Below, in pieces: positions 4,063-37,444 of a stretch of 64,000 nt of DNA (positions are counted from its first letter, which is position 1; each line of letters opens with the position of its first letter). Where the stretch lies: IMG/VR virus record IMGVR_UViG_3300016482_000025, positions 1 through 64,000 of that record; one strand, given 5' to 3'. This stretch comes from a virus. The notes under the pieces were generated by a model. The model was not told the origin of the DNA. It ran no database searches and saw only the letters and a list, made by a program, of their open reading frames with translations. A program made the translations under genes and the position numbers.

Positions 4063-4323
4063 TTAGTCCTGTTCCAGAATGATTTGATATCCAGCATCTT
4101 CCTTAATCAAAGGATAAACGTCAGGATGATCATTATCAATAACAAGATTATCCTCTAGATTATAAAGGACATACCCAACAGCATTTGGAGTATTCATTTG
4201 ACAAACAATATAGTGTTGGCGATCAGCACCAATAGTGATATCACCAAGACGTGTCTTGTCAACCAATTCCTTCATATTTGAAATAACAATTCGCTTGTCT
4301 GCACCAGTAACCTTAATCTTCAT
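4063..4323 (-). CDS. hypothetical protein
   Basis: Start moved to ATG 4323 (MKIKVTG) with GAGGA upstream. Confidence 0.5.
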   Translation of the reverse strand: MKIKVTGADKRIVISNMKELVDKTRLGDITIGADRQHYIVCQMNTPNAVGYVLYNLEDNLVIDNDHPDVYPLIKEDAGYQIILEQD

Positions 4324-4334
4324 TTTATTATTCC

Positions 4335-4634
4335 TCAACAAACGTCAAAACGCTTCTTCAATTCTTCATACAATTGGCGATCACGTTGCAAACGCAAATC
4401 AGCATAATACTTTTCTTCATTCAACCTCTTAGTCATTTCTTCATCAGTTTCTTCACGATTAACAAAAAGCTTAAGAGTCTGTCCTTCATCGTAACGGTTG
4501 CTTACGAATTCAAAGAAAGCTTCCTCACCATATCGTGAAAGCCAATCGTTAATTTGAGACTTGACAGCAGCAAGATTCATGTATTCAAAATCAACGTAAT
4601 CAACTTCAACCTTGATCTTTTTACGTTCACTCAT
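4335..4634 (-). CDS. hypothetical protein
   Basis: 99-aa ORF; its ATG overlaps the stop of the upstream small ORF (TCATGA). Confidence 0.5.
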   Translation of the reverse strand: MSERKKIKVEVDYVDFEYMNLAAVKSQINDWLSRYGEEAFFEFVSNRYDEGQTLKLFVNREETDEEMTKRLNEEKYYADLRLQRDRQLYEELKKRFDVC

Positions 4635-4801
4635 GATACAGCCCTTCCGACAAACAACGCAATAAAATAAAACACAAGAATAAAAAGCATCACGATTGAA
4701 AGAGAATTAATCCCTTCATCACGCGAGCCATGGCTTATAATTAGAAGAGTAATCCAAATGAAAAACCAGAATACACCCCAACCAACCAGAAAACCGAACA
4801 T
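4631..4801 (-). CDS. small membrane protein (56 aa, two hydrophobic segments)
   Basis: MFGFLVGWGVFWFFIWITLLII...VMLFILVFYFIALFVG; below the ORF-track cutoff; ATGA overlap with the next gene. Confidence 0.4.
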   Translation of the reverse strand: MFGFLVGWGVFWFFIWITLLIISHGSRDEGINSLSIVMLFILVFYFIALFVGRAVS

Positions 4802-4813
4802 TGTTTTTTCCTT

Positions 4814-5308
4814 TCACATTCCAAGAGCAGCACGGGCAAGCGCATCCTGCCGTCCAAAAGCTTCCTGTTCCCAAGGAAGCGCGCGATAATCCTGATACGT
4901 CCTAGCAGGACCATAGATGCCGGGACGGGCATAATCCGTGCCATTCCAAAGACGCTGGCCCGTGGACATTCCAGGCTTCCATGTCATGCGACCTTGCTTA
5001 AACTGTTCCGCATGAACAAGCTCATGGGCAAGATACGTCACAACATTCAGCGTAGTGCTGCGCGGATCAACGAAAATCCTATTGGAATTGAGAAAGAAAA
5101 GACCATCGGTTTTACCACGAATAGGCTTGAAGATCATGATTTGATCTTGCGACACATCAAGCATAGACAGAAGACGATCAAACGCCTTCACGATAACAGG
5201 AAAATGCTTGAAAGTATGTTCCTTATAAAGCTTGTTATACACGGCGGCAGTAGTGCCGTGAATGTTACCAACAATCTGCACAGTCTGTTGATTGGACTTC
5301 TTATGCAT
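4814..5308 (-). CDS. putative zinc metallopeptidase (HExxH)
   Basis: YLAHELVHAEQF contains an HExxH motif; promoter 5334-5362 upstream. Confidence 0.45.
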   Translation of the reverse strand: MHKKSNQQTVQIVGNIHGTTAAVYNKLYKEHTFKHFPVIVKAFDRLLSMLDVSQDQIMIFKPIRGKTDGLFFLNSNRIFVDPRSTTLNVVTYLAHELVHAEQFKQGRMTWKPGMSTGQRLWNGTDYARPGIYGPARTYQDYRALPWEQEAFGRQDALARAALGM

Positions 5309-5333
5309 CTGTCAATCTCCGTTCTATGGGTAA

Positions 5334-5362
5334 ACTATACAGATTAACGGCTATTACGTCAA
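5334..5362 (-). promoter_or_regulatory. sigma70-type early promoter
   Basis: Minus strand TTGACG, 17 nt, TATAGT. Confidence 0.55.
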
Positions 5363-5367
5363 GTGTT

Positions 5368-5610
5368 TTAGCGCACGATTTCCAGGGAAATTACCGAATT
5401 CCGCAGGAAAGAACGCCATTCAGCCTTTTCCAAATCAAAAACCCGGACCTGTTCATTCGTATATGGCGTGCCGGTTCCAATCGGGAGATTGGAATTAGCC
5501 AGATATGCCATATCCTGCGTGCAACGCATCACACGTTCCGTGCCGTCCTTCTTAGTGAAGGTGACGATACAAACGCCATTCTTAAGCGCATCAAAATTAA
5601 AATCGGTCAT
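5368..5610 (-). CDS. hypothetical protein
   Basis: Start moved to ATG 5610 (MTDFNFD) with GGAGG upstream. Confidence 0.5.
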   Translation of the reverse strand: MTDFNFDALKNGVCIVTFTKKDGTERVMRCTQDMAYLANSNLPIGTGTPYTNEQVRVFDLEKAEWRSFLRNSVISLEIVR

Positions 5611-7782: not shown

Positions 7783-7811
7783 TTGACACCTGTTTTTGGG
7801 GTTGTTATAAT
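7783..7811 (+). promoter_or_regulatory. consensus sigma70 promoter reading antisense into gene 7865-8095
   Basis: TTGACA, 17 nt, TATAAT; 35 of 40 nt identical to the uvsY-upstream promoter (61931-61970, minus strand). Confidence 0.55.
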
Positions 7812-7825: not shown

Positions 7826-7866
7826 AGAGAGATATTAGATTAATTCAAATTCTATGATATCTCTCT
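7826..7866 (-). terminator. 10-bp hairpin after gene 7865-8095
   Basis: AGAGAGATAT-21 nt-ATATCTCTCT; weak T tract on the minus strand. Confidence 0.35.
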
Positions 7867-8095
7867 AAAGCATTTGAACACTATCAATAGTAGCATTACC
7901 GTAATATGTTCCAATCCAAGCCACCACCTTTTTACTATCAAAATTGGTAATAGCATATGCAAGAGAGGAATCCGGCGCCGTGCGACATGTCCAGCCATCA
8001 ACCTTTACCAGATACCTAGGATTACCGTTCTTGGAAGACGGAAGGCGCTTAATGACTTCAAGCTTTCCTCTATGAATGGTGACGTTCTTCATCAT
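7865..8095 (-). CDS. hypothetical protein
   Basis: Start moved to ATG 8095 (MMKNVTIH), because promoter 8117-8145 lies inside the longer ORF. Confidence 0.5.
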   Translation of the reverse strand: MMKNVTIHRGKLEVIKRLPSSKNGNPRYLVKVDGWTCRTAPDSSLAYAITNFDSKKVVAWIGTYYGNATIDSVQML

Positions 8096-8116
8096 AATCC
8101 CCTTGGTTACAGCAAC

Positions 8117-8145
8117 AACATACACCAAACCTTTTTGAATGTCAA
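8117..8145 (-). promoter_or_regulatory. sigma70-type early promoter
   Basis: Minus strand TTGACA, 17 nt, TATGTT. Confidence 0.55.
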
Positions 8146-8158: not shown

Positions 8159-8186
8159 TTGACGGGAAGTTTTTTTCTGGTATAAA
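8159..8186 (+). promoter_or_regulatory. sigma70-type early promoter
   Basis: TTGACG, 16 nt, TATAAA; divergent from 8117-8145. Confidence 0.55.
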
Positions 8187-8208
8187 TGCGCTTCAACGAT
8201 GTGGAGAT

Positions 8209-8484
8209 ATGAAAATGTCTGATCTTCGGAAGTATATCAACATTCGCAAGTATCATTTTGGCAACATGATGCATGGCTATGGTGAGAAGAATGTTCCTTT
8301 GAAGATTGCCCGCATCTATTACAGCATTGCAACCAAGCGTGCCGATGATACGGTCAAGGTTTCGGCTATGGATAAGGAATGGGCTTGCATGGTTGCTGGT
8401 CGGGAATGTTCTATTCGCGAAATCCTTGAAATTAAGGATGATCTGAATAATTGGATTGACGGTAAGGAAAAGGAAGCGGCATAA
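8209..8484 (+). CDS. hypothetical protein
   Basis: ATG 8209 after GGAGA, downstream of promoter 8159-8186. Confidence 0.5.
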   Translation: MKMSDLRKYINIRKYHFGNMMHGYGEKNVPLKIARIYYSIATKRADDTVKVSAMDKEWACMVAGRECSIREILEIKDDLNNWIDGKEKEAA

Positions 8485-8849
8485 TGTCTGGTGATGATGA
8501 TATTCCAAATGTGTATATTCAGCACGGTTCTCATTCCGTAGATAATACTACGGTGCATATTGTTGTTGAATATCCAGAGCCGTCTTTTCTAATTGGAAGC
8601 ACCAAGGCTCTTCGTAATTTTGATACTCTTAACAATATCTTTTATGAAGAGAATGATTATCGTCTTGGTAGTGCAATTATTCGTCTAACTGAAAAGAATG
8701 ATCGTCTTTATATTGCAACAAGCACTAATGACTATGGTTATGATGTTTATGTGAATGGTGTTGAAAACGCCAAGATTGTTGCTGAGACTATTCGCAACAT
8801 TCGTGTTGCGATGAATAACAATAAGCGTATGTCTGCTAAGATCGTGTAA
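8484..8849 (+). CDS. hypothetical protein with N-terminal PNVYIQHGSH motif
   Basis: MSGDDDIPNVYIQHGSHSVD; the same decapeptide as in the ADP-ribosyltransferase island at 48.4-53.4 kb. Confidence 0.6.
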   Translation: MSGDDDIPNVYIQHGSHSVDNTTVHIVVEYPEPSFLIGSTKALRNFDTLNNIFYEENDYRLGSAIIRLTEKNDRLYIATSTNDYGYDVYVNGVENAKIVAETIRNIRVAMNNNKRMSAKIV

Positions 8850-8851
8850 CT

Positions 8852-9361
8852 TTGGACCCTAGGTTCTTAACTGAGCCTAGGGTATCCTCATTTAAAAGGA
8901 TTGTAACTTTGATCACACTTCAAAGGAATTATGAAGGACTTTACGTTTCAGAATTGATTGAAGATAGATACCAAATACTTCAATCTTCTGTAAACAAGGA
9001 ATTCTTCATTTATGACCATTCGAAAGAATCCAATATTGTTTCTAATACTGATTCTATTCTTTATTTTGATTCTATAGAAGCAGCAGAACGTTTTATTAAA
9101 AAGACACCGCCACCAAAAAAGGTGAAAACTTATATTAATAAAACTGTAACTAAGAAGCAATCGGTTCGTAAGGAAACCGCTCTATCTTTGATGCGTGATC
9201 TAATTTTGAATTCAGAATTGGATGATGAACAGATTGCACAGAAAATCCTTGAAACCTATCCGGCTTCCACGTATAATAAGAGCATGGTAAAATTTCAGCG
9301 CAAGAAACTTGTGCAGGAGAATGGTGATGGTGAGTGGTTTGAAGATAACGGAACAGTTTGA
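8852..9361 (+). CDS. hypothetical protein (start unresolved)
   Basis: 169-codon frame with no in-frame ATG in the first ~100 codons; canonical AAAGGAATTATG at 8931 is in another frame. Confidence 0.35.
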   Translation: MDPRFLTEPRVSSFKRIVTLITLQRNYEGLYVSELIEDRYQILQSSVNKEFFIYDHSKESNIVSNTDSILYFDSIEAAERFIKKTPPPKKVKTYINKTVTKKQSVRKETALSLMRDLILNSELDDEQIAQKILETYPASTYNKSMVKFQRKKLVQENGDGEWFEDNGTV

Positions 9362-28509: not shown

Positions 28510-28596
28510 GCCCGAATGGCGGAATGGCAGACGCGGCGCGCTCAAAACGCGCTCCCTTCGTGGGTGGGGGTGGGGGTTCAAGTCCCTCTTCGGGCA
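28510..28596 (+). tRNA. tRNA-Leu (anticodon CAA), class II
   Basis: Acceptor GCCCGAA/TTCGGGC; anticodon arm GCGCG-CTCAAAA-CGCGC; long variable arm; T loop TTCAAGT; CCA encoded at 28597-28599; own promoter 28471-28499. Confidence 0.85.
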
Positions 28597-29093
28597 CCAT
28601 TTCTTGAACAATAAGTATCTGTTTGTGAGTGACAATTAGGACACAAATAACGGAGATTTGTTATTCTATTATCCGTATTGATACCATTGATATGATCAAT
28701 ATGTAAAGTTAATTTTTTATTATTCCAATATTCTGTAAGCCCACATTCTTTACATTGTTTTTTTAAACCATATTCATCTAATAATCTATTTAAAGCAGTA
28801 GATGTTAAATGAACATCTTCTTTTAAAGATGAATGAATTGTATGTTTTGTGTTTTTTATTGATTGATTTTTTATAATTTTTGATGTTTGTTTGGTCAACC
28901 CTTTAGACCAACCTTGACCTGAAAAATGTGAAACATCTAATTCATATTCAATTATTTTATTTTTAATTGTTTTAAAATTACCACCTTTTAAAACTAAGTT
29001 TAAATGTCGTAAAACATCTGATATACTTTTTGATTGTTGTATTAAAGGCTGTAATAATTCTTTTGTATAATTATTTTTCTTTGGCATACACAT
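28578..29093 (-). CDS. HNH homing endonuclease
   Basis: HIDHINGINTDNRITNLRYLCPNCHSQTD; low GC; start taken at ATG 29093 (MCMPKK) after AAGGA; the 3' end overlaps tRNA-Leu(CAA) on the other strand. Confidence 0.8.
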   Translation of the reverse strand: MCMPKKNNYTKELLQPLIQQSKSISDVLRHLNLVLKGGNFKTIKNKIIEYELDVSHFSGQGWSKGLTKQTSKIIKNQSIKNTKHTIHSSLKEDVHLTSTALNRLLDEYGLKKQCKECGLTEYWNNKKLTLHIDHINGINTDNRITNLRYLCPNCHSQTDTYCSRNGARRGT

Positions 29094-29098
29094 ATTCC

Positions 29099-29127
29099 TT
29101 GACAATAAATGTGTTTACCTATATAGT
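29099..29127 (+). promoter_or_regulatory. sigma70-type promoter for the tRNA operon
   Basis: TTGACA, 17 nt, TATAGT; the tRNA starts 8 nt downstream. Confidence 0.6.
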
Positions 29128-29135
29128 TATAGTAT

Positions 29136-29210
29136 GGCCGTTTAGTCCAATCGGTAGGAGACAAGGCACTTAAAATGCTAACAGTATCAGTTCGAATCTG
29201 ATAACGGCTA
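29136..29210 (+). tRNA. tRNA with anticodon UAA (Leu codon family) but class I architecture
   Basis: Acceptor GGCCGTT/AACGGCT (G1-U72); anticodon loop CTTAAAA; 5-nt variable loop; T arm ATCAG-TTCGAAT-CTGAT; CCA encoded; promoter 29099-29127. Confidence 0.65.
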
Positions 29211-29221
29211 CCATTTTTTTT

Positions 29222-29304
29222 GTGGGTATGGCGTAATTGGCAGCCGCGCTAGACTTAGAATCTAGTGGTTAACAGCCGTGGGGGTTCAAGTCCCTCTACC
29301 CACA
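29222..29304 (+). tRNA. tRNA-Leu (anticodon UAG), class II
   Basis: Acceptor GTGGGTA/TACCCAC; anticodon arm CTAGA-CTTAGAA-TCTAG; long variable arm; T loop TTCAAGT; CCA encoded. Confidence 0.85.
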
Positions 29305-29370
29305 CCATTAAAAATCTACTACCATCGCATGGTTCTTACAGCGTCTTAAGAGAGACGAATAAAGTAGAGA

Positions 29371-29404
29371 GAAGCACTTAAAGGGGTGACGTGCTTCATT
29401 TTAT
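29371..29404 (+). terminator. hairpin followed by a T-rich tract
   Basis: GAAGCAC-13 nt-GTGCTTC followed by ATTTTAT. Confidence 0.35.
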
Positions 29405-29454
29405 AAAGGGATAGAAATGTCTTTTAATATTAATCTGGATAAATTTAAGTAAGT

Positions 29455-29832
29455 ATGAGCAAAGCTGATGTGAATTGGAATGTAGATATGCGTATTAAGG
29501 CAGAACGCGAGGAAGCGGAACGCAAGCGTAAGCTTGCAGAACAAAATGCAGAAGCCGACCGTCGCCGTCAGCAAGACAATACTGATAATATGATGGGTCT
29601 AGCGGTAGGTATTGCAACTGGTATTCCAATTAACATTACTCCGGGTGCAATTGTTGGTGCTGCTATTCATCATAGCAATCACACACCTTCCCCGACGCCT
29701 GCAACAGAGACTTATGAAAGCCCAAAGCCTTCATATGATTCAGGTTCTTCTTCATATGATTCAGGTTCTTCTTCATATGATTCAGGAAGTAGCAGCGGTG
29801 GTGGAAGTTTTGACACTGGTGGTAGCTTCTAA
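29455..29832 (+). CDS. membrane protein with glycine-zipper segment and SYDSGSS repeats
   Basis: GLAVGIATGIPINITPGAIVGAAI; C-terminal SYDSGSS x3 then SGGGSFDTGGSF. Confidence 0.5.
   Translation: MSKADVNWNVDMRIKAEREEAERKRKLAEQNAEADRRRQQDNTDNMMGLAVGIATGIPINITPGAIVGAAIHHSNHTPSPTPATETYESPKPSYDSGSSSYDSGSSSYDSGSSSGGGSFDTGGSF
29731..29793 (+). repeat. 3 x 21-bp in-frame tandem repeat
   Basis: TCATATGATTCAGGTTCTTCT appears twice exactly, and the third copy diverges at its end. Confidence 0.9.
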
Positions 29833-30010
29833 GAGACGTGCCGTTATCCAACGGCTAGTGTTCCTCGCATGACGAGAAGCGGCTTGGATAGCCGTAGAGG
29901 GGTTTCCGGTTAGGTGAACCGGCGCTGGCAGCGCGAGAGTCTTGTAGCGGGCAGCGGAGAGGGTTTCCCCGAGAGGGGTAGCCTTAAAAGCGGGTTATGG
30001 GAAGCACTTA
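29833..30010 (+). ncRNA. GC-rich multi-hairpin spacer, candidate structured RNA
   Basis: No ORF; consecutive hairpins GCCGTT-ATCC-AACGGC, CGGCT-TGGAT-AGCCG, CCGGTT-AGGTG-AACCGG, CCCC-GAGA-GGGG; abuts tRNA-Gln. Confidence 0.3.
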
Positions 30011-30083
30011 TGGAGGGTCGTCTAACTGGCAGGACACGAGACTTTGAATCTCGGTAATATAGGTTCGAATCCTATCCCTCCAA
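30011..30083 (+). tRNA. tRNA-Gln (anticodon UUG)
   Basis: Acceptor TGGAGGG/CCCTCCA; anticodon arm CGAGA-CTTTGAA-TCTCG; T arm ATAGG-TTCGAAT-CCTAT; CCA encoded. Confidence 0.85.
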
Positions 30084-30097
30084 CCAGTTTTAATTGT

Positions 30098-30190
30098 GTC
30101 GGGTGAGTCTAGGGGTCTAGAGAGAATCCATAGGAATTGCGATGGGGGATTCCATAAGCAATCATTGCCGTTCAAATCGGCAACCCGGCT
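30098..30190 (+). ncRNA. 93-nt tRNA-like RNA with no identifiable anticodon arm
   Basis: Acceptor GTCGGGT/ACCCGGC; T arm TGCCG-TTCAAAT-CGGCA; CCA encoded; the interior folds as TCTA-GGGGTC-TAGA and GAATCC-17 nt-GGATTC instead of D and anticodon arms. Confidence 0.45.
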
Positions 30191-30208
30191 CCATTTTAGG
30201 ATTATATT

Positions 30209-30484
30209 ATGAGATATAATAATGGGCATGTTGATACAGGTAAAAGAATACAAACTAATTTAAAATGTTGGAATTGTGGTTCTTCTGAATATTATCAAAC
30301 TGTTTCAATTGAACATTGTCCATCATGTGGTATTCGTTGTGACTATTGTGGTTCTGGTGTTAATGAAAAATATGAATCTGCTTCAAATGCAAAACATCAG
30401 AGAGAAGAATACGAAAGAGAAGAGCGTTTAAGAAAAGAGCTTGAACAAGAAAGAGAATGGTTTTATTATGATGAATGTGATTGA
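30209..30484 (+). CDS. zinc-ribbon protein
   Basis: CWNCGS...CPSCG...CDYCGS. Confidence 0.5.
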   Translation: MRYNNGHVDTGKRIQTNLKCWNCGSSEYYQTVSIEHCPSCGIRCDYCGSGVNEKYESASNAKHQREEYEREERLRKELEQEREWFYYDECD

Positions 30485-30683
30485 GATTATCAATAATTCA
30501 GAGAAAGAAAAGCTTGACTTCCTCTTTGATCTTTGGTATAAGATAGAAGACAAACAAGAGAAAGATAAGCTTCAAGCTGTAATAGTTATAGTGAAAGAGT
30601 TTTATCAAAATAAACGTTTGATATTCCAAGCCATGGAATGTAATAAAAAGTTACAGCATAAACCAAATTATGATGAAATGTGA
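30468..30683 (+). CDS. hypothetical protein
   Basis: Start moved to ATG 30468. Confidence 0.4.
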   Translation: MMNVIEIINNSEKEKLDFLFDLWYKIEDKQEKDKLQAVIVIVKEFYQNKRLIFQAMECNKKLQHKPNYDEM

Positions 30684-30696
30684 AAGGATTTATATT

Positions 30697-31119
30697 ATGA
30701 AGATGTCAGTTCTTACTCGCCGTTGGATTGATGCGCTGCGTTCTGGAAATTATAAGCAAACTTCCGGTTGTCTTAAGAATGATGACGGTTTTTGTTGCCT
30801 TGGTGTTGCAGCCGATGTAATGGCACCTTCTGAGTGGCGTAAGACTGTTGATTCTGATGGATATTATTCTTTCCGTAAGATGGGCGATGTTGGTTTGCTT
30901 AAACACGATGATTTTCTTCGCCTTGTTCCTAATTACGTTCAAGATCGTCTTGATTTTTCTATTTCTGCTGATGATCTTGCTGAATTGAATGATAGTTACG
31001 ATTTTACTTTCCCTATGATTGCAGATGTGGTAGAGTCTTGGTGGAGTAAGAATCCTCTTGATCCTAATGACGCTCATGACCGCAAGACTATTCAGCGCAA
31101 GCATGGTGTAATTAAGTAA
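30697..31119 (+). CDS. hypothetical protein
   Basis: AAAGGATTTATATTATG initiation region; WIDALRSGNYKQ...CCLGV. Confidence 0.5.
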   Translation: MKMSVLTRRWIDALRSGNYKQTSGCLKNDDGFCCLGVAADVMAPSEWRKTVDSDGYYSFRKMGDVGLLKHDDFLRLVPNYVQDRLDFSISADDLAELNDSYDFTFPMIADVVESWWSKNPLDPNDAHDRKTIQRKHGVIK

Positions 31120-31132
31120 TATATACAGTCAA

Positions 31133-31222
31133 GGAAGGTTGGCAGAGTCCGGCTTATTGCGCTCGCCTTGAAAGCGAGAGAAGGTTAATAGCCTTCCGTG
31201 GGTTCAAATCCTACACCTTCCG
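31133..31222 (+). tRNA. tRNA-Ser (anticodon UGA), class II
   Basis: Acceptor GGAAGGT/ACCTTCC; anticodon arm CTCGC-CTTGAAA-GCGAG; long variable arm; T loop TTCAAAT; CCA encoded. Confidence 0.85.
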
Positions 31223-31228
31223 CCAGTT

Positions 31229-31341
31229 TGTGGTAAGGAAAGTCTTATAATTCTAGACGTATAAGAGCAGACTGATCATCTGTAAACGGAGAATGGGCAA
31301 CCGATGCGCTTGAACGCTAGGTGGATACCTCACCGGCCACA
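31229..31341 (+). ncRNA. 113-nt RNA candidate with acceptor-like terminal helix and adjacent 3' hairpin
   Basis: TGTGGT (31229-31234) pairs with GCCACA (31336-31341); GGTG-GATACCT-CACC hairpin just before the 3' strand; TTTT follows. Confidence 0.3.
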
Positions 31342-31533
31342 TTTTGATCTTTAAATTTAAGAGTTTAGTGTTCCCGAAAGGGGTTTAGTAAATAACAATA
31401 GTGGTAGATATCGGTCGTAAGGCTATCTGAGTTATTGAAAGGCGTGTGAAGCGACAGGGGGTGGCTCGGGTAGCAAGCCTGGAAGGTGGTTCGATTCCAA
31501 CACATAACACTAAAATTTTGAAAGGATTATGTT

Positions 31534-31734
31534 ATGGAACAAGTGACATATATTACATATAATGTGATAGTTAGAAAGAATGATTCTTTTCTTGGTGAAA
31601 ATAAATTCACTGATTTAGAAGATGTAAAAATATTTGTAAATTATCTAAAGTGTAATAAACAAATTGTATGTAAAGTTTTTCGTGTAACAAATTGGCGTCC
31701 TGTTCATGAAGAAATTAATTTGGATGATTTTTAA
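31534..31734 (+). CDS. hypothetical protein
   Basis: GAAAGGATTATGTTATG initiation region. Confidence 0.45.
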   Translation: MEQVTYITYNVIVRKNDSFLGENKFTDLEDVKIFVNYLKCNKQIVCKVFRVTNWRPVHEEINLDDF

Positions 31735-31740
31735 GATTGA

Positions 31741-31833
31741 TGGCGTGTAGCTCAATTGGCAGAGCGGTGGCCTTATACTCCACGTATGCACTAGATTGGT
31801 GCGCGGTTGCAGGTTCAAGTCCTGCCACGCCAA
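31741..31833 (+). tRNA. tRNA with anticodon UAU (Ile AUA) and a 25-nt variable region
   Basis: Acceptor TGGCGTG/CACGCCA; D arm GCTC-AATTGGCA-GAGC; anticodon loop CTTATAC on a 4-bp stem plus a C-U mismatch; T arm GCAGG-TTCAAGT-CCTGC; CCA encoded; 93 nt. Confidence 0.6.
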
Positions 31834-31838
31834 CCATT

Positions 31839-32027
31839 ATGGAAAAGAAAATGACTATCATTTATTTCATATTAGCATTCACAATTATAAATGTTACTGA
31901 TAGTCGTAATTGGGAAGAAGGAACAGTTATTGCTCGCTCTTGTGCAGAAGCAATTTCTTATGTTCAAAATGGTTTAAGAGAAAACCAGAGATTAATTGTT
32001 GATGGGTGTATAGAATTGGCTCGATAA
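31839..32027 (+). CDS. small secreted or membrane protein (62 aa)
   Basis: Start moved to ATG 31839 because the longer ORF overlaps the tRNA; hydrophobic N-terminus. Confidence 0.4.
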   Translation: MEKKMTIIYFILAFTIINVTDSRNWEEGTVIARSCAEAISYVQNGLRENQRLIVDGCIELAR

Positions 32028-32032
32028 ATAGC

Positions 32033-32061
32033 TTGACAGAATACCCTCTTTAGTGTAGGGT
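32033..32061 (+). promoter_or_regulatory. sigma70-type promoter for sRNA candidate 32066-32188
   Basis: TTGACA, 17 nt, TAGGGT. Confidence 0.45.
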
Positions 32062-32065
32062 AACA

Positions 32066-32188
32066 TAGTAGGGACTAAGAAAGAGTAACCGAGACAACTT
32101 TCTGAATGGATAGACAAGTGTTGATGCTGGCAGCCGTTAAATGACCTTCTCAGGTCTTGCATCATCGTCCAAGTCCCTGCCTTTTTTT
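32066..32188 (+). ncRNA. about 120-nt small RNA candidate with its own promoter and a T7 run
   Basis: Promoter 32033-32061; TAGGGAC (32069-32075) pairs with GTCCCTG (32173-32179), followed by CC and TTTTTTT; no ORF. Confidence 0.4.
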
Positions 32189-32199
32189 AGGATTTAATA

Positions 32200-32325
32200 A
32201 TGTTTGATATGTTAATGGAGCAAATTCTAATTGATATTGGTGGTATTATTCTTGTTCTTATTTTAATTGGTGTTGGTATTGGTTATTTTGTAAGATCAAG
32301 GGTGAATATCAAAAAGGATTCCTGA
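32200..32325 (+). CDS. small membrane protein (41 aa)
   Basis: AGGATTTAATAATG; IGGIILVLILIGVGIGYFV. Confidence 0.4.
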   Translation: MFDMLMEQILIDIGGIILVLILIGVGIGYFVRSRVNIKKDS

Positions 32326-32460
32326 AACAGATTGAGTAGCTAACAATCATGTCAGGCAGGGGATAATTTATAAACTATAACAGGTTGCCACCCATGGAAG
32401 AGTGGTTGTAAAACGAATAATTCCTGATGTTTTTAAAAATCCCCGTAAGAATACCGCGCT

Positions 32461-32548
32461 TGGCCCGTCGCGGGATATAAGTCTTCGGGGTGAGGGTTGA
32501 CACCACAGGTCCAATCTGTTATATGTCAGCAGTAAGCTAACGGGCCAG
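32461..32548 (+). ncRNA. 88-nt tRNA-like candidate inside a 229-nt GC-rich spacer
   Basis: TGGCCCG pairs with CGGGCCA, followed by G, CCA and GTTTT exactly as after bona fide tRNAs here; an ACAG-GTCCAAT-CTGT hairpin looks like an anticodon arm but D and T arms are aberrant. Confidence 0.3.
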
Positions 32549-32566
32549 CCAGTTTTGGAGTTTGTC

Positions 32567-32935
32567 ATGGAAAATATTAGTGAATTGAATACTTCTGAGC
32601 TTAAACGTAAGTATCGTGAAGCACAAGAGCTTTCCAAGAAAATTGAACAAGAAGTAAACAAGCGTCATGAAGAAGAGCTTGTTGAAAGTAACCGTGTAAT
32701 TACAGAACAACCTATTGCTCAATTTGCAATTAAGCTTCATAATAAGTTTTGTAAGTGGAATCATACTGATGGTTGCTCTTGGCATTATGAAATGGTAAAT
32801 CGTGAGCATGATTGGTCGCGTGATGAACATCGTAGATGGATGAATAAAGCTATTAATTTGGATATGCGTCTAAAAAATGGTGTAACGATTAATAGCGAAA
32901 ACTACTTCGATATTGTTGACAAGCTGATGCCATAG
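32567..32935 (+). CDS. hypothetical protein
   Basis: Start moved to ATG 32567 after GGAG. Confidence 0.5.
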   Translation: MENISELNTSELKRKYREAQELSKKIEQEVNKRHEEELVESNRVITEQPIAQFAIKLHNKFCKWNHTDGCSWHYEMVNREHDWSRDEHRRWMNKAINLDMRLKNGVTINSENYFDIVDKLMP

Positions 32936-32944
32936 TGCTATAAG
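32916..32944 (+). promoter_or_regulatory. sigma70-type promoter for the 118-nt tRNA-like RNAs
   Basis: TTGACA, 17 nt, TATAAG; the RNA 5' end (32954) lies 9 nt downstream. Confidence 0.55.
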
Positions 32945-32953
32945 GATATACAT

Positions 32954-33071
32954 GGGGAGGGCGAGGTTAGCGGCGACGGCTGCTTTCGAGGAAGACGTTT
33001 CTCTTGCTGGTTTGGTGAAGCCTCTGGCCCTGTATGGAGCCAGGACGGGGGTTCAAGTCCCACCCTCCCCA
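32954..33071 (+). ncRNA. 118-nt tRNA-like RNA (acceptor stem plus T arm only), copy 1
   Basis: GGGGAGG/CCTCCCC 7-bp terminal helix; GGACGGGGGTTCAAGTCCCAC T arm; starts about 10 nt after the -10 box of promoter 32916-32944; no cloverleaf interior; no encoded CCA. Confidence 0.5.
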
Positions 33072-33080
33072 ACAATTTTT

Positions 33081-33198
33081 GGGTATGATGCTAGAGTGTT
33101 CGATTCACTCAAAATTCCCTTGTGGAATTTCCTGGGCGGTATAAAAGCTACGGTAACAAGGCTCGCGACCTTACTTGGTTCAATTCCAAGCATACCCA
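33081..33198 (+). ncRNA. 118-nt tRNA-like RNA (acceptor stem plus T arm only), copy 2
   Basis: GGGTATG/CATACCC 7-bp helix; T arm CTTGG-TTCAATT-CCAAG; CCA encoded; interior has a second T-arm-like hairpin GAGTG-TTCGATT-CACTC and a 7-bp hairpin AAATTCC-CTTGT-GGAATTT. Confidence 0.5.
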
Positions 33199-33220
33199 CC
33201 ATTTTTGAAGGAATTATATT

Positions 33221-33688
33221 ATGGAAAACGCGACCAAAATTTATATTGATTATTCTTCTTATACTACCGTAACAAATTCTGCCGATCCTGATGACGAATG
33301 GGATCGTGATGATACTTCAACGGATTATTACGTTAATGGTTTAACTTTAGAACCTAACGGTTCTTTTGAGTATTGTTATTATCCAGGCGAAGTGAAGGAA
33401 GGTGATAAGATTTATCTAGTTTATGCAGTCTATTCTACTGGTGATAGTTTTCATCGTGACGAAAGAGGTTGTATTGACTTTGTTGGAGTTTACAAGGATA
33501 AGGCTACTGCCGATTTAGTGGCTCATGTTCTTGAAAAGCATTCTACAGAAGATAACATGTATGGTGAAGCCAAGTGGACAGCTAAGATTGTTCTTGACAA
33601 TGGCACCGAATATGACTATCATGTTGGATGGGTTGGTTATTTTGAACACCTTGATTACATTAGTGTTGAGGAATTTATTGTTCGATGA
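33221..33688 (+). CDS. hypothetical protein
   Basis: GAAGGAATTATATTATG initiation region; 155 aa. Confidence 0.5.
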   Translation: MENATKIYIDYSSYTTVTNSADPDDEWDRDDTSTDYYVNGLTLEPNGSFEYCYYPGEVKEGDKIYLVYAVYSTGDSFHRDERGCIDFVGVYKDKATADLVAHVLEKHSTEDNMYGEAKWTAKIVLDNGTEYDYHVGWVGYFEHLDYISVEEFIVR

Positions 33689-33876
33689 ATATCATTTGGA
33701 CCGAAGAACAAGTAAAGATGTTAAATGAACGTCAGGCACGTAATGATTTACACCCATATACGTGTCCTGGTGATCATAAAGAGTGTGAAAATAATAGAGA
33801 ATTAATTGCCACAATTTATGGATGGCGTTGTGTTTGTGGTAAATACACACAAAATTGGTCACATGAAACCAGATAA
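33685..33876 (+). CDS. small Cys-containing protein
   Basis: 63-aa ORF, ATGA overlap. Confidence 0.45.
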   Translation: MNIIWTEEQVKMLNERQARNDLHPYTCPGDHKECENNRELIATIYGWRCVCGKYTQNWSHETR

Positions 33877-34109
33877 TGATGAATATATACCATTTTGCTA
33901 TTGACATTGGACAATGGGATTGTGATAATTGGGTTGCTGTTGCTGATGATATAGAAATTGCAAAAGAAAAGGTCATTCATACTTGGAAACAAAGATATGG
34001 TGGACCAATTCAAGAAAATGTTGATAGGTTTGTCAATCAGTTAAATAATGCGTCAGTAGAGATTATTGATATTGACGGTGCCGCAAATGTGTGGCAATCT
34101 TTTGATTAA
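33876..34109 (+). CDS. hypothetical protein
   Basis: 77-aa ORF. Confidence 0.45.
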   Translation: MMNIYHFAIDIGQWDCDNWVAVADDIEIAKEKVIHTWKQRYGGPIQENVDRFVNQLNNASVEIIDIDGAANVWQSFD

Positions 34110-34110
34110 C

Positions 34111-34156
34111 GGGGAAGCCGCTAAGATGGTGGATTAGCACCGGATTTCAAAACCGC
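34111..34156 (+). pseudogene. tRNA 5' half remnant with a UCA anticodon loop
   Basis: GGGGAAG-CC-GCTA-AGATGGTGGAT-TAGC-A-CCGGA-TTTCAAA-ACCGC; no T arm or 3' acceptor strand follows; the HNH gene starts 33 nt downstream. Confidence 0.4.
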
Positions 34157-34162
34157 TTTTGT

Positions 34163-34188
34163 CTAAATACTTTAAAAAAGGTGTTTAG
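34163..34188 (+). promoter_or_regulatory. hairpin abutting the HNH start codon, with late-promoter-like CTAAATAC in its 5' arm
   Basis: CTAAATAC (34163-34170) pairs with GTGTTTAG (34181-34188); ATG at 34189. Confidence 0.4.
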
Positions 34189-34614
34189 ATGAAACAAAGA
34201 CATAACAATTTTACAGATGAAGAATTAATAGAAGCATATAATGAATTAAAACATTTGGGGAAAATAGCACATAAATTTAAGGTTCCTCATATACAAATTT
34301 GGCGTAAATGTCAAAAATTAAATTTACATTTTAAAAATGGTGGTAATAACGAAAAAATTAATCTAAATGAAATTTTAGAAGGTTTTCATGGTTATTATCC
34401 AACAAATAAATTAAGAAAACGAATAATAAAAGAAAAAATATTACCTTACGAATGTGCGAAATGTGGTATTCACAAATGGAATGGTTGTGATATAGTGCTT
34501 CAATTAGATCATATAAATGGTGAATCAACAGACCATAGGTTAGAAAATTTGAGATTGTTGTGTCCTAATTGTCATTCTCAAACTGATACATGGTGTGGAA
34601 AAAATAAGGGCTAG
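34189..34614 (+). CDS. HNH homing endonuclease
   Basis: QLDHINGESTDHRLENLRLLCPNCHSQTD; low GC; paralog of the gene at 28578-29093; last 7 nt overlap tRNA-Tyr. Confidence 0.8.
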   Translation: MKQRHNNFTDEELIEAYNELKHLGKIAHKFKVPHIQIWRKCQKLNLHFKNGGNNEKINLNEILEGFHGYYPTNKLRKRIIKEKILPYECAKCGIHKWNGCDIVLQLDHINGESTDHRLENLRLLCPNCHSQTDTWCGKNKG

Positions 34615-34690
34615 TAGTCCGTTAAAGACGCGGGAGTGACTGTAAATCACTTGCTTAATTGCTGGCGTGGCGCGATACCACGATAGCCCA
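34608..34690 (+). tRNA. tRNA-Tyr (anticodon GUA), class II, non-canonical T loop
   Basis: Acceptor GGGCTAG/ATAGCCC (6 bp plus a mismatch); anticodon arm AGTGA-CTGTAAA-TCACT; T arm CGTGG-CGCGATA-CCACG lacks TTC; CCA encoded. Confidence 0.55.
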
Positions 34691-34702
34691 CCAGTTTTTA
34701 TT

Positions 34703-34948
34703 ATGGAGATAAGAATGTCTAAGACAGAAAAGCCTGTTGTCGAGAAGCAAGCCGTAGAAGTTGATTTGAAGGTTGTGGTTGTTGAAATTTTTGATAGTAG
34801 TGGAGATAATGTAATTACATTGCGTTATCCTGTTGGAAAGAATCAAGCACCAATGGTTCCGGCGTGTGTTTCTTCTATGTTACTCTCAGATAATCCGCCT
34901 GTCATCAATATTTCTGTTGACTATGTTAAGGGAATTGAGTATATATAA
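34703..34948 (+). CDS. hypothetical protein
   Basis: ATG 34703 or 34715 directly after the tRNA-Tyr trailer. Confidence 0.45.
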   Translation: MEIRMSKTEKPVVEKQAVEVDLKVVVVEIFDSSGDNVITLRYPVGKNQAPMVPACVSSMLLSDNPPVINISVDYVKGIEYI

Positions 34949-34955
34949 GGAATGC

Positions 34956-35039
34956 GCGGGTGTAGCTCAGTGGTTTAGAGCGTCGGTCTTCCAAACCGAA
35001 GGCGAATAGGTTCCGTGGGTTCGAATCCCACCATCCGCT
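34956..35039 (+). tRNA. tRNA-Gly (anticodon UCC) with a 15-nt variable region
   Basis: Acceptor GCGGGTG/CATCCGC; D arm GCTC-AGTGGTTTA-GAGC; anticodon arm TCGGT-CTTCCAA-ACCGA; T arm GTGGG-TTCGAAT-CCCAC; CCA encoded; 84 nt. Confidence 0.7.
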
Positions 35040-35048
35040 CCATTGTTT

Positions 35049-35122
35049 GTCTCTGTAGCTCAATTGTAAAGAGCGTTGGCCTACGAAGCCGAAGGTTACA
35101 GGTTAGAGTCCTGTCAGGGACT
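35049..35122 (+). tRNA. tRNA-Arg (anticodon ACG)
   Basis: Acceptor GTCTCTG/CAGGGAC; anticodon loop CTACGAA; T arm ACAGG-TTAGAGT-CCTGT; CCA encoded. Confidence 0.8.
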
Positions 35123-35134
35123 CCATTTTATTAT

Positions 35135-35207
35135 GGCGCGTTAGATTACTGGCTAGATCGTCGGGCTTTCATCCCGAAGGAAGGGGTTCGATCTCCCCTA
35201 CGCGCTA
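35135..35207 (+). tRNA. tRNA-Glu (anticodon UUC)
   Basis: Acceptor GGCGCGT/ACGCGCT (G1-U72); anticodon arm TCGGG-CTTTCAT-CCCGA; GGTTCGATC T region; CCA encoded. Confidence 0.8.
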
Positions 35208-35226
35208 CCAGTTTTGAGGATTTATA

Positions 35227-35445
35227 ATGAGAGACATTAATCAAATGAATCATCTTGAAACGCTTTTTCATATTAATGGATTTAAAATTCATGATCGTAT
35301 GAAAAGCCCGGTCGAAGAATATGATGGTGTTATTGTTACTGCTAGATATCATAAAGCTTCACGTTCAGATTATTCGTTGATTATGCAATATTTTGGTAAA
35401 GAAAATTTTGCATTCTATGAAGGTAAAAGATTTGCTGTATGGTGA
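35227..35445 (+). CDS. hypothetical protein
   Basis: GAGGATTTATAATG initiation region; the stop overlaps the tRNA-His 5' end. Confidence 0.45.
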   Translation: MRDINQMNHLETLFHINGFKIHDRMKSPVEEYDGVIVTARYHKASRSDYSLIMQYFGKENFAFYEGKRFAVW

Positions 35446-35515
35446 GTGTAGTTTAGTTGGTTAAAACGTCGGCCTGTGACTCCGAAGACCACGGGTTCAA
35501 ATCCCGTCACCCACC
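35441..35515 (+). tRNA. tRNA-His (anticodon GUG) with encoded G-1
   Basis: G-1 opposite C73; acceptor GTGAGTG/CACCCAC (one A-C mismatch); anticodon loop CTGTGAC; T arm ACGGG-TTCAAAT-CCCGT; CCA encoded. Confidence 0.8.
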
Positions 35516-35535
35516 CCATTTGAAGGAATTATATT

Positions 35536-35838
35536 ATGTTTAAGACAATTACATCAGAACAATTAGATTTGTTTTTTGAGCAACATTGTCATAATTTTCA
35601 TGGGTATGATGGGCGCGTAATTAAGAATGCCATTACTCGTGAATTTCTTATTCCTATGACAGCCAATACCGCTGTTTATACACATAATATCCTCCATGAT
35701 TATATGTCACTTTCTCTTGTTCCTGATACTTTCTTGGAACAGATGGTTGAATACCATTGTAAGATTAAACATCTTGGTTATGATATGAAAGATAATATTT
35801 CAAATAAAAATGAAACATTGAAAGCAATTTTCACATGA
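35536..35838 (+). CDS. hypothetical protein
   Basis: GAAGGAATTATATTATG initiation region. Confidence 0.5.
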   Translation: MFKTITSEQLDLFFEQHCHNFHGYDGRVIKNAITREFLIPMTANTAVYTHNILHDYMSLSLVPDTFLEQMVEYHCKIKHLGYDMKDNISNKNETLKAIFT

Positions 35839-36086
35839 CAGAAGATTCTAGACTTGCAGAGTTATACAATAACACTATAGATGAATCGCGTATTACAGAG
35901 CTATACAAAAAGTTAAAAAGTAAAAACACAACACATTTTAGCGTGACATGGGGACCGGAAGGTGTTAAGCTTACTGAGGAAGAAAAGGCTGATTATCTTC
36001 TTAAATTGATGAATGGGATTGAGGATGGAACAATTGAACATACTATCCACGCAGACTTTCCAGAGTTACCTAGAAAGCAATCTTGA
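35835..36086 (+). CDS. hypothetical protein
   Basis: 83-aa ORF, ATGA overlap. Confidence 0.45.
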   Translation: MTEDSRLAELYNNTIDESRITELYKKLKSKNTTHFSVTWGPEGVKLTEEEKADYLLKLMNGIEDGTIEHTIHADFPELPRKQS

Positions 36087-36252
36087 TAAAGAGCTTTTTG
36101 AATTACAAGAAAATATTAAGTATGTAAGAGATTTTGGTAGTGGTCCAAAAGATAGATTTTCACCAGAATATTATGATTTTGAATTACACTACCAAGATAC
36201 AATTGTTGATATTATAACCAAATATGAAAAAATGTTTATGAGGTCGTTATGA
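36013..36252 (+). CDS. hypothetical protein (start uncertain)
   Basis: Overlaps the previous ORF by 74 nt; alternative ATG at 36025. Confidence 0.3.
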   Translation: MGLRMEQLNILSTQTFQSYLESNLDKELFELQENIKYVRDFGSGPKDRFSPEYYDFELHYQDTIVDIITKYEKMFMRSL

Positions 36253-36677
36253 TTGATAAGTTTTCTGGTGAATATCGTTGGCTATCCAATTTTGTGCCTT
36301 GTCCTGTTCTCCTAGATGGTGTAGAGTATCCTTCTGTTGAACATGCTTATCAGGCAGCCAAGACAGTTATCAAGGAAGAACGTGAAATCATTCTTCAAGC
36401 AAAGACTGCCGGTATTGCCAAGAAGCTAGGTAAGCTTGTTACAATGCGCCACAATTGGGATATGTGGAAGTGGAATATTATGTTTAATCTCTGTATGCAG
36501 AAGTTTCTAAAGGAACCATTTCGTTCTCAGCTTCTAGCTACAGGTGATCAAGAAATTATTGAAGGAAATACTTGGGGTGATACTTATTGGGGTATTTGCA
36601 ATAATATTGGGCAAAATAATCTAGGTAAGATCATCATGCATATTCGTCAAACTATTCGTGATGGTGAATATCACTGA
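36249..36677 (+). CDS. NADAR (YbiA/DUF1768) domain protein
   Basis: FSGEYRWLSNFVPCPVLLDGVEYPSVEHAYQAAKT...GNTWGDTYWG is the NADAR signature. Confidence 0.75.
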   Translation: MIDKFSGEYRWLSNFVPCPVLLDGVEYPSVEHAYQAAKTVIKEEREIILQAKTAGIAKKLGKLVTMRHNWDMWKWNIMFNLCMQKFLKEPFRSQLLATGDQEIIEGNTWGDTYWGICNNIGQNNLGKIIMHIRQTIRDGEYH

Positions 36678-36690
36678 TATATAATAAAAT

Positions 36691-36764
36691 GGGCCGGTAG
36701 CTCAGTTGGCTAGAGCGGGAGACTCTTAATCTCTAGGTCGTGGGTTCGAATCCCACCCGGCCCT
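36691..36764 (+). tRNA. tRNA-Lys (anticodon CUU)
   Basis: Acceptor GGGCCGG/CCGGCCC; anticodon loop CTCTTAA; T arm GTGGG-TTCGAAT-CCCAC; no encoded CCA. Confidence 0.85.
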
Positions 36765-36771
36765 CATAGAG

Positions 36772-36822
36772 CCTAGAAGTTATAAATAGCAATGGCAATA
36801 AGACTAATTTATAACTTCTAGG
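36772..36822 (+). promoter_or_regulatory. 16-bp perfect hairpin sequestering the endonuclease RBS, with TATAAATA in its 5' arm
   Basis: CCTAGAAGTTATAAAT (36772-36787) pairs with ATTTATAACTTCTAGG (36807-36822); TATAAATA at 36781-36788; AGGA at 36820-36823; TTG start at 36830. Confidence 0.6.
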
Positions 36823-36829
36823 ATTAATT

Positions 36830-37444
36830 TTGTATTACACAATCTATAAAATAACAAATAAAATTAACAATAAATTCTATATTGGAATGCATAAAACCAA
36901 AAATTTAAATGATGGTTATATGGGTTCTGGTAAACTCTTGAAACGTGCTATTAAAAAACACGGAATTGAAAACTTTATTAAAGAAATTCTATTCATTTTT
37001 GATAATGAACAGGATATGATTAATAAAGAAAAAGAATTAGTAGAAGTATCAGAGCAATCTTATAACCTTTGTGAAGGTGGTAAAGGTGGTTTTGGTTTTA
37101 TAAATGCTAATGGTCTTGGTGGAACACTTGGTTATAAATGGAGTGATTATTATAAAAATCATTTTAGAAAAAAAGCACAAGAACAATATGAAAAATGGAC
37201 TGATGAAGATTGGAATAATCATTCTTCACAAATAAAAAATGGAATAATAAACCGTAAACCATCATTTCTTGGTAAAAAACACACAGAAGAAACCAAACAA
37301 AAAATGAGAAAATCTAAAAATATTGGTATAAAAAATCCAAGTTTTGGTTCTATGTGGATTACTAATGGAATAGATAACAGGAAGATAAAAAAACTTGAAA
37401 CCATTCCTGATGGGTGGTATAAAGGAAGAAATAAGGGGTCTTAG
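36830..37444 (+). CDS. GIY-YIG homing endonuclease
   Basis: YYTIYKITNKINNKFYIGMHKT...GYMGSG; NUMOD3-like GKKHTEETKQKM; low GC; the last 10 nt overlap tRNA-Ala. Confidence 0.8.
   Translation: MYYTIYKITNKINNKFYIGMHKTKNLNDGYMGSGKLLKRAIKKHGIENFIKEILFIFDNEQDMINKEKELVEVSEQSYNLCEGGKGGFGFINANGLGGTLGYKWSDYYKNHFRKKAQEQYEKWTDEDWNNHSSQIKNGIINRKPSFLGKKHTEETKQKMRKSKNIGIKNPSFGSMWITNGIDNRKIKKLETIPDGWYKGRNKGS

Follow-up and report, generated by a model that had tools for sequence, protein, structure and literature searches.

The stretch analyzed here, hereafter the window, spans 64 kb of an uncultured, distant T4-like myovirus (positions 1 to 64,000 of IMG/VR record IMGVR_UViG_3300016482_000025; 37% G+C) and forms part of a 162-kb source contig. 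Its early portion holds a small open reading frame (ORF), ORF121, and its distal portion an island of four genes encoding ADP-ribosyltransferases (ARTs). A short peptide motif connects the two loci: in line with the original prediction, the decapeptide PNVYIQHGSH heads the 121-amino-acid (aa) ORF at 8484-8849, distant from the ART genes at 48.4-53.4 kb. The ORF121 protein begins MSGDDDIPNVYIQHGSHSVD. The two loci comprise the following features.

8484-8849, plus strand: ORF121, ATG start, 121 aa; a 23-aa N-terminal tag followed by a ~97-aa core of an uncharacterized phage family
8484-8552, plus strand: lineage-specific N-terminal extension MSGDDDIPNVYIQHGSHSVDNTT, missing from the syntenic proteins P0004 and P0005
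8502-8537, plus strand: motif core IPNVYIQHGSHS, matching the copies of the ART leaders exactly or nearly so (33.7 bits against a hidden Markov model, HMM, of the motif)
48434-49273, plus strand: ART279; leader MKTFADFAMR, degenerate motif (48488-48523), motif (48536-48571), LRE site and Alt/VIP2-type ART domain
49275-50006, plus strand: ART243; ART paralog (Pfam PF03496) without leader or motif
50010-52529, plus strand: ART839; leader MKKFRDFVSK, four motif copies, VSE site, HEAT-type array and C-terminal ART domain
50043-50078, 50100-50135, 50157-50192 and 50214-50249, plus strand: the ART839 motif copies, with a 19-residue period
52529-53386, plus strand: ART285; leader MKSFKSYLKA, motif (52571-52606), FTE site and ART domain

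A leader motif of ARTs recurs in ORF121

A six-frame scan of the window located the exact decapeptide at 8505 and 50160 and copies with one substitution at 48539, 50046, 50103, 50217 and 52574, i.e. seven copies in all including that of ORF121; a degenerate copy (IPAVVITHGAH) lies at 48491 within ART279. The form adopted in the window, [IL]PN[LV]YI[QP]HGSH, occurs once each in ORF121, ART279 and ART285 and four times in ART839; a more inclusive notation is [IL]PN[LVM]YIxHGSH[SA]. When up to four substitutions were allowed, the sole further match in the window was a stop-interrupted string with four substitutions on the minus strand (33612-33641). Scored with the motif HMM, true copies reached at least 19.7 bits, with ORF121 at 33.7 and the best noise at 8.2. 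At the protein level, the ORF121 decapeptide is identical to copy 3 of ART839. At the nucleotide level, the ORF121 copy has 22-24 of 30 positions in common with the ART copies, third codon positions being essentially randomized. The codon choices are thus independent, as had been noted from the sequence, and the randomized synonymous sites indicate the likeness to be kept at the protein level rather than to stem from recent DNA exchange.

A degenerate DNA pattern for the motif gave no match in IMG/VR or in the JGI metagenomes. Its lone match in 596 Gb of GTDB genomes (IPNIYIAHGSH, in an Archaeoglobaceae metagenome-assembled genome) falls into a 22-codon stretch between stops and was set aside as a chance hit. 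This excludes a frequent chance decapeptide; the recurrence of the motif is real and far beyond chance. A motif-only profile search of a 5.8-billion-protein database returned 168 word-sharing candidates, none of them at E ≤ 10, and was uninformative because a 12-residue signal keeps even known motif proteins from reaching the threshold. A literature search retrieved no paper with the motif strings.

In distant IMG/VR ARTs (26-37% identity), divergent copies are found in the leaders after the targeting sequence, for example IPCVIIHQGEHS, TPVLIQHGMHS, IPVHGAHS, VPSADYYPSHGSHA, ETSFGSHS, LPSVFVGHGKHS and VPSLMNMHGGHA; they persist in phages with ARTs less than 35% identical. The general form of the motif is [VIL]P-x-hydrophobic stretch-[HQF]G-x-H-[SA], with one to four copies per protein. 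A loose regular expression, run over ~300,000 six-frame residues of the window together with 30 related loci, matched only ART leaders plus ORF121 and its homolog P0002. The motif is missing from the phage's other proteins with a targeting sequence (108, 289 and 233 aa), from a short-ART subfamily (MKKLRQIIE…, ~200 aa) and from leaderless ART243-type paralogs. Its regular setting consists of a capsid-targeting sequence (CTS) upstream, a φ-x-E tripeptide (φ, hydrophobic) downstream and fusion to an Alt/VIP2 ART. ORF121 is the only exception to this setting, with neither a CTS nor a conserved φ-x-E nor an ART domain. The claim that the motif reaches beyond the ART family therefore stands for ORF121, but it applies to this one protein lineage only, all other occurrences being ART leaders. 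As a module, the motif has not been described before; the element to which it belongs, the propeptide of T4-type head-packaged proteins, is of a known kind.

PF03496 is found in all four island proteins (E = 2e-17 to 5e-11, with ART279 at 2e-17). The number of motif copies varies among relatives: the ART839 orthologs of L005 (824 aa) and L007 (845 aa) carry three each, and the leaders of P0011 and P0014 two each, those of P0014 in the divergent form IPAVTKVVHGTHA. Between P0009 and ART285, overall identity is 63%, while the two agree at every position of a 21-residue block that surrounds the motif. Leaderless ART243-type paralogs adjoin only ARTs with at least two motif copies, and the ART243 orthologs P0008, P0010 and P0012 are likewise without leader. 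As for the catalytic residues, STS and ExE motifs are present in the island ARTs, and the Arg of motif I ('YRG' in C3larvin) is replaced by an invariant Ser ('fSG') in 14 of 14 aligned phage ARTs; two ARTs of the IMG/VR phage contig L028 have Thr at this position ('YTG'). Judging from these replacements, the Arg-less ARTs may be atypical or need a cofactor.

Further observations concern the architecture of the ARTs and their surroundings. In the middle of ART839 (50300-51800), HEAT-type repeats (HxxxLDKALDDxxxxVRxxA…) account for ~500 residues that separate the motif array from the ART domain; in the JGI relative P0015, similar repeats, annotated as Pfam HEAT and PF01816, lie C-terminal to the ART domain. 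Some ARTs carry a second class of repeated leader peptide in the motif's place, LP[VA]V[FY]M[SN]AGGPP in two copies (L020/L021, 5485-6522; P0017), with IAFSNAGGPP and NLYGRGGGPP as other peptides of this class in L020/L021 and P0017. In L007, a 49-aa ORF (4647-4796; MLNFAAFAKKK…IPIANITHGHH…) has a leader, a motif-like copy and a late-type promoter and is without an ART domain. It overlaps the leaderless ART230 (4780-5472) in another frame at an A6 run, where one A fewer would yield a fusion; either the gene is split, the run is a site of slippage, or the assembly is wrong there. Finally, the gene directly upstream of two tandem motif-bearing ARTs in L028 codes for an ADP-ribosylglycohydrolase (4071-4973; PF03747, E = 3e-32), a possible pairing of an eraser with ART writers.

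The tag of ORF121 is an add-on under purifying selection

The sole close homolog of ORF121 in a search of 5.8 billion proteins is P0002 (57% identical, E = 9e-36), encoded on a 1.3-kb Logan contig. Exhaustive HMMER searching of 1.84 billion representatives revealed P0004 (98 aa, E = 3.8e-21) and P0005 (97 aa, E = 7.9e-13), both of which align from residue 2-3 onward with ORF121 residues 24/25-121. Their membership in the ORF121 family is borne out by similarity to the core profile, including the C-terminal IRNIRVAMNNxKRM, and by a kept gene neighborhood comprising an upstream gene encoding MxxxRYINxRKYHFxNMMHGYG, a divergent promoter region and a downstream metallophosphoesterase gene. A fourth HMMER match, a 1347-aa repeat protein, was judged spurious. 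The IMG/VR search yielded no relatives of the family. ORF121 matched no Pfam or PHROG family; its sole Pfam match, to DUF2590, was sub-threshold (16.6 bits versus a cut-off of 27) and was dismissed. As proposed originally, the protein has neither an ART domain (Pfam) nor an MKxF leader.

Both P0004 and P0005 lack the tag and begin directly at the core (~residue 24 of ORF121), from which it follows that residues 1-23 of ORF121 were added within one lineage to a 97-aa early protein that already existed. Comparing the window with L001, which encodes P0002, codons 1-20 show 19 of 20 residues to be identical, with 6 synonymous changes, and codons 21-121 show 50 of 101 residues to be identical, with 20 synonymous changes. 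Given the similar synonymous divergence, the two parts differ clearly in conservation (Fisher p = 1e-4), indicating the tag to be under far stronger purifying selection than the core. Together with the untagged syntenic relatives, this supports the notion of a portable N-terminal tag.

In the core, identity to the L001 ortholog is ~50%, as compared to 91% for the adjoining upstream gene (8215-8484), and on this measure the core is evolving unusually fast. AlphaFold2 folds it as β-α-α-β-β-α-β with a predicted local distance difference test (pLDDT) score of ~70, the whole model being of low confidence (pLDDT 61); a Foldseek search with the core returned generic ferredoxin-like matches only, at E > 0.01. 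The motif occupies residues 7-18 and lies in a disordered segment of the model, with pLDDT < 50 for residues 1-18 and 10-residue block means of 32 and 39 over residues 1-20. Directly 3′ of the ORF121 stop, an 8-bp perfect palindrome is found at 8856-8883 (ACCCTAGG…CCTAGGGT, 12-nt loop), without a T-run.

ORF121 looks early and the ARTs look late

Promoter elements relevant to the two loci and, for comparison, to the major head protein gene gp23 are as follows.

8159-8187, plus strand: σ70-type promoter, TTGACG-16 nt-TATAAAT, of a two-gene unit (the 8215-8484 gene, then ORF121)
48404-48411, plus strand: T4-type late promoter TATAAATA, 22 nt upstream of ART279
63945-63938, minus strand: TATAAATA box, 28 nt upstream of gp23

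In L001, L003 and L004, the orthologous units are preceded by the corresponding promoter, TTGACA-16/17-TA(t/g)AAA, the element thus being present in four loci including the window. The three loci belong to SRR26420192, SRR15116522 and ERZ28616714 scaffold_303, respectively. In L003, the −10 element reads TAGAAA, and hence what is kept is a promoter of the σ70 type rather than a late TATAAATA box. For the same reason, and because the −35 TTGACA is kept in four loci, TATAAATG at 8181 was rejected as a late promoter; no TATAAATA was found near ORF121. Late-type boxes also precede the ART islands of L006 and L007. By these promoter signatures, ORF121 looks early and the ARTs late. With its early promoter, ORF121 would be present when injected ARTs act.

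Further promoter sequences were noted in the window. A perfect σ70 consensus promoter with a TG extension on the plus strand (7783-7811; TTGACA, 17 nt, TATAAT) is directed into the antisense strand of an 87-aa ORF on the minus strand (7865-8128). In addition, a promoter/5′-leader cassette, TATAAATGC…TCAACGATGGAGA…ATG, precedes two different early genes, at 8181-8208 on the plus strand and around 234 on the minus strand.

The motif lies within a predicted ART propeptide

In T4, the ten residues of the CTS MKTYQEFIAE are enough for packaging, with positions 4 and 7 being the most important, and a residue other than Glu at position 10 stops cleavage, not targeting; T4 propeptides have an affinity for the core, and their removal releases the cargo (PMC9026906). 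By the criteria taken from that paper, a CTS is an N-terminal M-K-x-[YF]-x-x-[FLY] decapeptide, with residues 4 and 7 as the targeting residues. The phage encodes canonical CTS proteins beginning with MKSFKQFITE (108 aa), MKTYKQLVSE (289 aa) and MKSFKQLQEE (233 aa), all of these decapeptides ending in φ-x-E, at the following positions.

53723-54424, minus strand, in the window: the MKSFKQLQEE protein, 233 aa
L002, 6832-8029, just past the window, between portal and prohead protease: the MKSFKQFITE and MKTYKQLVSE proteins

The three matched no Pfam family and are likely internal or ejected proteins. The ART leaders MKTFADFAMR, MKKFRDFVSK and MKSFKSYLKA conform to the T4 sequence in its targeting part, and the motif copies come next. 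ART homologs from related phages retain this arrangement. In 15 of 16 ART leaders, an [LIVMF]-x-E tripeptide begins 1-10 residues past the last motif copy. Such a tripeptide occurs in 16.5% of the other 20-residue windows of the same proteins, and when the tails were shuffled with their composition preserved, a site was present in 6.1 of 16 leaders on average and in 12 at most. The layout of the ARTs, as read from their sequences, is a targeting sequence, motif copies, a putative φ-x-E protease site and the mature ART, and the φ-x-E after the motif predicts the latter to be cut off in the prohead. In ART285, ART279 and ART839, the predicted sites are FTE29, LRE52 and VSE88, respectively.

ORF121 differs from this layout. 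Its N-terminus, MSGDDDIPNV, does not conform to a CTS and is no MKxF leader, and no conserved φ-x-E is present: a VVE at residues 27-29 lies inside the first core β-strand, and P0002 has none. The lack of a CTS and of a conserved φ-x-E and the conserved σ70-type promoter disfavor ORF121 as additional packaged cargo, one of the roles that had been suggested for it.

Docking of the motif to the ART domain as the favored reading

The AlphaFold2 model of ART285 (mean pLDDT 80) has a fold matching C3, VIP2 and CDTa. Residues 11-20 (MPWVIPNLYI) reach a pLDDT of 80, the N-terminal helix 55, and the linker (residues 30-59) is disordered at < 50. DSSP assigned a β-bridge to residue 17, and the model has its β-strands exclusively in the ART domain (149-270). 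The models hint at docking of the motif on the ART β-sheet in ART285, the motif being undocked and disordered in ORF121.

The restriction of the motif to ARTs, its absence from other packaged proteins, the docking seen by AlphaFold2 and the propeptide context lead us to favor an ART-binding pro-segment, with a probability of roughly 0.35: the motif would serve the ARTs as a docking propeptide, and ORF121, by mimicking it, would act in trans as their partner or regulator. The sharing of the motif suggests ORF121 to be tied to the injected ARTs. Of the original proposal that ORF121 is a partner or regulator of the island proteins, what stands is its plausibility: it is favored by the ART-restricted motif and the AlphaFold2 model, albeit unproven.

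Mechanistically, the motif would be a short disordered docking peptide within the cleavable propeptide of head-packaged Alt/VIP2-type ARTs in a distant T4-like clade. It may dock onto the ART catalytic domain, either in cis or on the leaderless paralogs, and in doing so would keep the ART latched or escorted in the producing cell until a gp21-type protease removes the leader in the prohead. ORF121, an unrelated small early protein, would have captured one copy of the motif as a non-cleavable N-terminal tag in one lineage. Made early in infection, it would bind, via this tag, the injected mature ARTs whose own motif was cut away, and the peptide DDDIPNVYIQHGSHSVD or full ORF121 would be predicted to bind a mature ART domain. 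As a propeptide mimic in trans, ORF121 might serve as an inhibitor or timer, or else as an adaptor bringing its fast-evolving core to the ARTs. A bolder version of this reading, which we regard as doubtful, takes HGxH[SA] to be a transferable ART latch whose pro-segment ORF121 copies to switch off or retarget the phage's own injected ARTs, and would make ORF121 the first such early protein. If true, an effector delivered by the virion would have its own timer built in, and a peptide handle for controlling ARTs would be at hand.

Several points weigh against an ART-docking propeptide. The four tandem copies of ART839 exceed what a latch in cis needs, and copy number rises with protein size, to which a role in avidity or anchoring fits equally well. 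The motif is near-identical across ART paralogs that are only 35-40% identical in their catalytic domains, so that a shared third-party partner fits as well as a conserved surface patch on the ART. The alignment behind the ART285 model held 14 sequences, ~6 of them with the motif, and, since many of the 16 leaders are related (~10 independent lineages), the real significance of the cleavage-site enrichment is lower than the statistic suggests. A weak point is that no ART match mapped to the 50-kb contig of the untagged P0005. Finally, T4 Alt is not known as a zymogen.

The best-surviving alternative, although we hold it to be unlikely, interprets the motif as an accessory capsid-targeting or anchoring element for the prohead core or shell (gp22, gp21, the portal or the inner face of gp23) that supplements the CTS, with ORF121 as extra cargo or a competitor. 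The position of the motif between CTS and protease-type site, inside the presumed propeptide, agrees with such a role, as T4 propeptides have core affinity and are removed to free the cargo (PMC9026906). The number of copies rises with cargo size, from 1-2 in ARTs of 245-350 aa to 3-4 in ARTs of 824-845 aa, suggesting avidity for a multivalent lattice. Moreover, no other part of these phages is as conserved as the head machinery (gp23, 60-73% identity), which would explain the deep conservation of the motif. Yet the three other CTS proteins of the same phage do without it, and over ~300,000 residues it is confined to ARTs and ORF121, a specificity for ARTs that an anchoring role does not explain. 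ORF121, for its part, has no CTS, conserved φ-x-E or late promoter but a conserved early promoter, and AlphaFold2 puts the motif on the ART domain. Were the motif only an extra packaging anchor, it would still refine the targeting rules for T4-like heads.

It is improbable that the motif instead docks a host factor, such as the substrate of the ARTs, RNA polymerase or the ribosome, on which ARTs and ORF121 would converge. This would be in keeping with a motif that is short, disordered, repeated and highly conserved, and both kinds of protein could act in the first minutes, the ARTs by entering with the DNA and ORF121 by means of its early promoter; a fast core (~50%) next to an upstream neighbor at 91% is also typical of host-interaction proteins. 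However, the φ-x-E of 15 of the 16 leaders predicts removal of the motif before injection, the motif persists in phages from very different samples and thus presumably different hosts, and the GTDB genome scan revealed no bacterial protein with it.

Still weaker, and in our view quite unlikely, is a motif that acts as an acceptor or substrate-recognition site of the ARTs and is self-modified in cis, which would make ORF121 a tagged substrate regulated by ADP-ribosylation. The motif holds no Arg, its Asn and Ser are not invariant, and tandem copies in a presumably discarded propeptide would be odd for a regulatory acceptor, even though the motif is strictly tied to the ART domain, is set against the catalytic domain by AlphaFold2 and keeps its P, G and second H invariant across divergent variants. 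A homotypic β-strand or amyloid-like co-assembly element comparable to RHIM or HET-s/NWD2, by which ORF121 would piggy-back on or cap ART assemblies, is hardly credible: a short motif common to functionally different proteins, at the extreme N-terminus of ORF121 and in 1-4 tandem copies elsewhere, is reminiscent of such elements, and N-V-Y-I-Q-H-G, alternating between hydrophobic and polar, bears a loose likeness to the RHIM core I/V-Q-I/V-G, but the motif, with IQHG, does not match the RHIM tetrad (I/V)-Q-(I/V/L)-G, a Pro/His-rich motif with Pro/Lys/Asp linkers is atypical for amyloid motifs, the tagged genes lie 40 kb apart rather than adjacent, and the AlphaFold2 models show no β-arch.

Genomic context of the window

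Besides the loci described above, the window encodes UvsW, UvsY, a gp46/gp47 nuclease pair, an RnlA-type RNA ligase, numerous small genes and the major head protein.

62578-63909, minus strand: gp23, the major head protein

A cluster of 13 tRNA genes spans 28510-37510 (three for Leu and one each for Gln, Ser, Ile(tat), Tyr, Gly, Arg, Glu, His, Lys and Ala). Judged by gp23, the nearest sequenced phage is Stenotrophomonas phage DLP6 (73% identity), followed by pelagiphages, cyanophages and Sinorhizobium phiM12-type phages; gp23 identity to relatives ranges from 60 to 73%. Only core genes such as gp23 matched GenBank phages. The ORF121 region and the ARTs gave no match there, either by megablast of 7-11 kb or by tblastn of ORF121 and ART285.

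Comparison with known systems

Head-packaged ARTs such as T4 Alt are classic phage effectors delivered together with the DNA, their restraint in the cell that makes them, their sorting into the head and their later shut-off being poorly understood. The present data define a second conserved propeptide module beside the CTS, spanning a wide clade of uncultured T4-like phages, and the transplant of its motif onto an unrelated early protein constitutes a natural experiment that points to a physical link with the injected enzymes. If this link holds true, it would offer an interaction between peptide and domain that can be tested, a candidate for the regulation of phage ARTs and, possibly, a new means of tagging cargo to be loaded into T4-type capsids or controlled there.

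Mullaney and Black, in 1996, are said to have described the CTS that IPI, IPII and IPIII, internal proteins of T4, carry. The motif resembles that sequence in being a short portable N-terminal peptide on unrelated proteins, in belonging to a propeptide that ends at a gp21-type φ-x-E and in its association with late genes. In contrast to the CTS of IPI, IPII and IPIII (reviewed in PMC9026906 and PMC3012670), it is a second element downstream of the CTS, of unrelated sequence, present in up to four copies and confined to ARTs but for ORF121, which has the motif without CTS, cleavage site or late promoter.

T4 Alt itself is an Alt/VIP2-clade ART, a late product that is packaged, undergoes trimming by the prohead protease and is injected along with the DNA (PMC9026906; PMC9503650). 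The island ARTs appear to belong to the same Alt/VIP2 clade, ART285 as modeled matching C3, VIP2 and CDTa. In contrast to them, Alt loses 6 N-terminal residues only (X15811 annotation), and the island ARTs are small (243-285 aa) or HEAT-fused, with Ser or Thr at the position of the expected catalytic Arg. A reading of the motif as a disguised T4 Alt N-terminus (IPQIFSVH) was rejected as homology: the Alts of T4 and three other T-even-type phages have at most a loose [IV]PQ[IV][FW] in common and no conserved HGxH[SA].

With RHIM and other amyloid motifs (HET-s/NWD2, bacterial BASS), the motif shares its shortness, its occurrence across different proteins, its terminal position and its variable copy number, but it does not fit their known cores, nor are the genes concerned adjacent. 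Inhibitors that resemble the propeptide of a zymogen and act in trans are found in MEROPS families I9 and I29, whose members resemble protease prodomains. While these involve proteases and whole folded prodomains rather than a 12-residue linear motif on an ART, they would, by analogy, follow the same logic as the ART-docking propeptide favored here, in which a free protein carrying a copy of an enzyme's pro-segment binds the mature enzyme.

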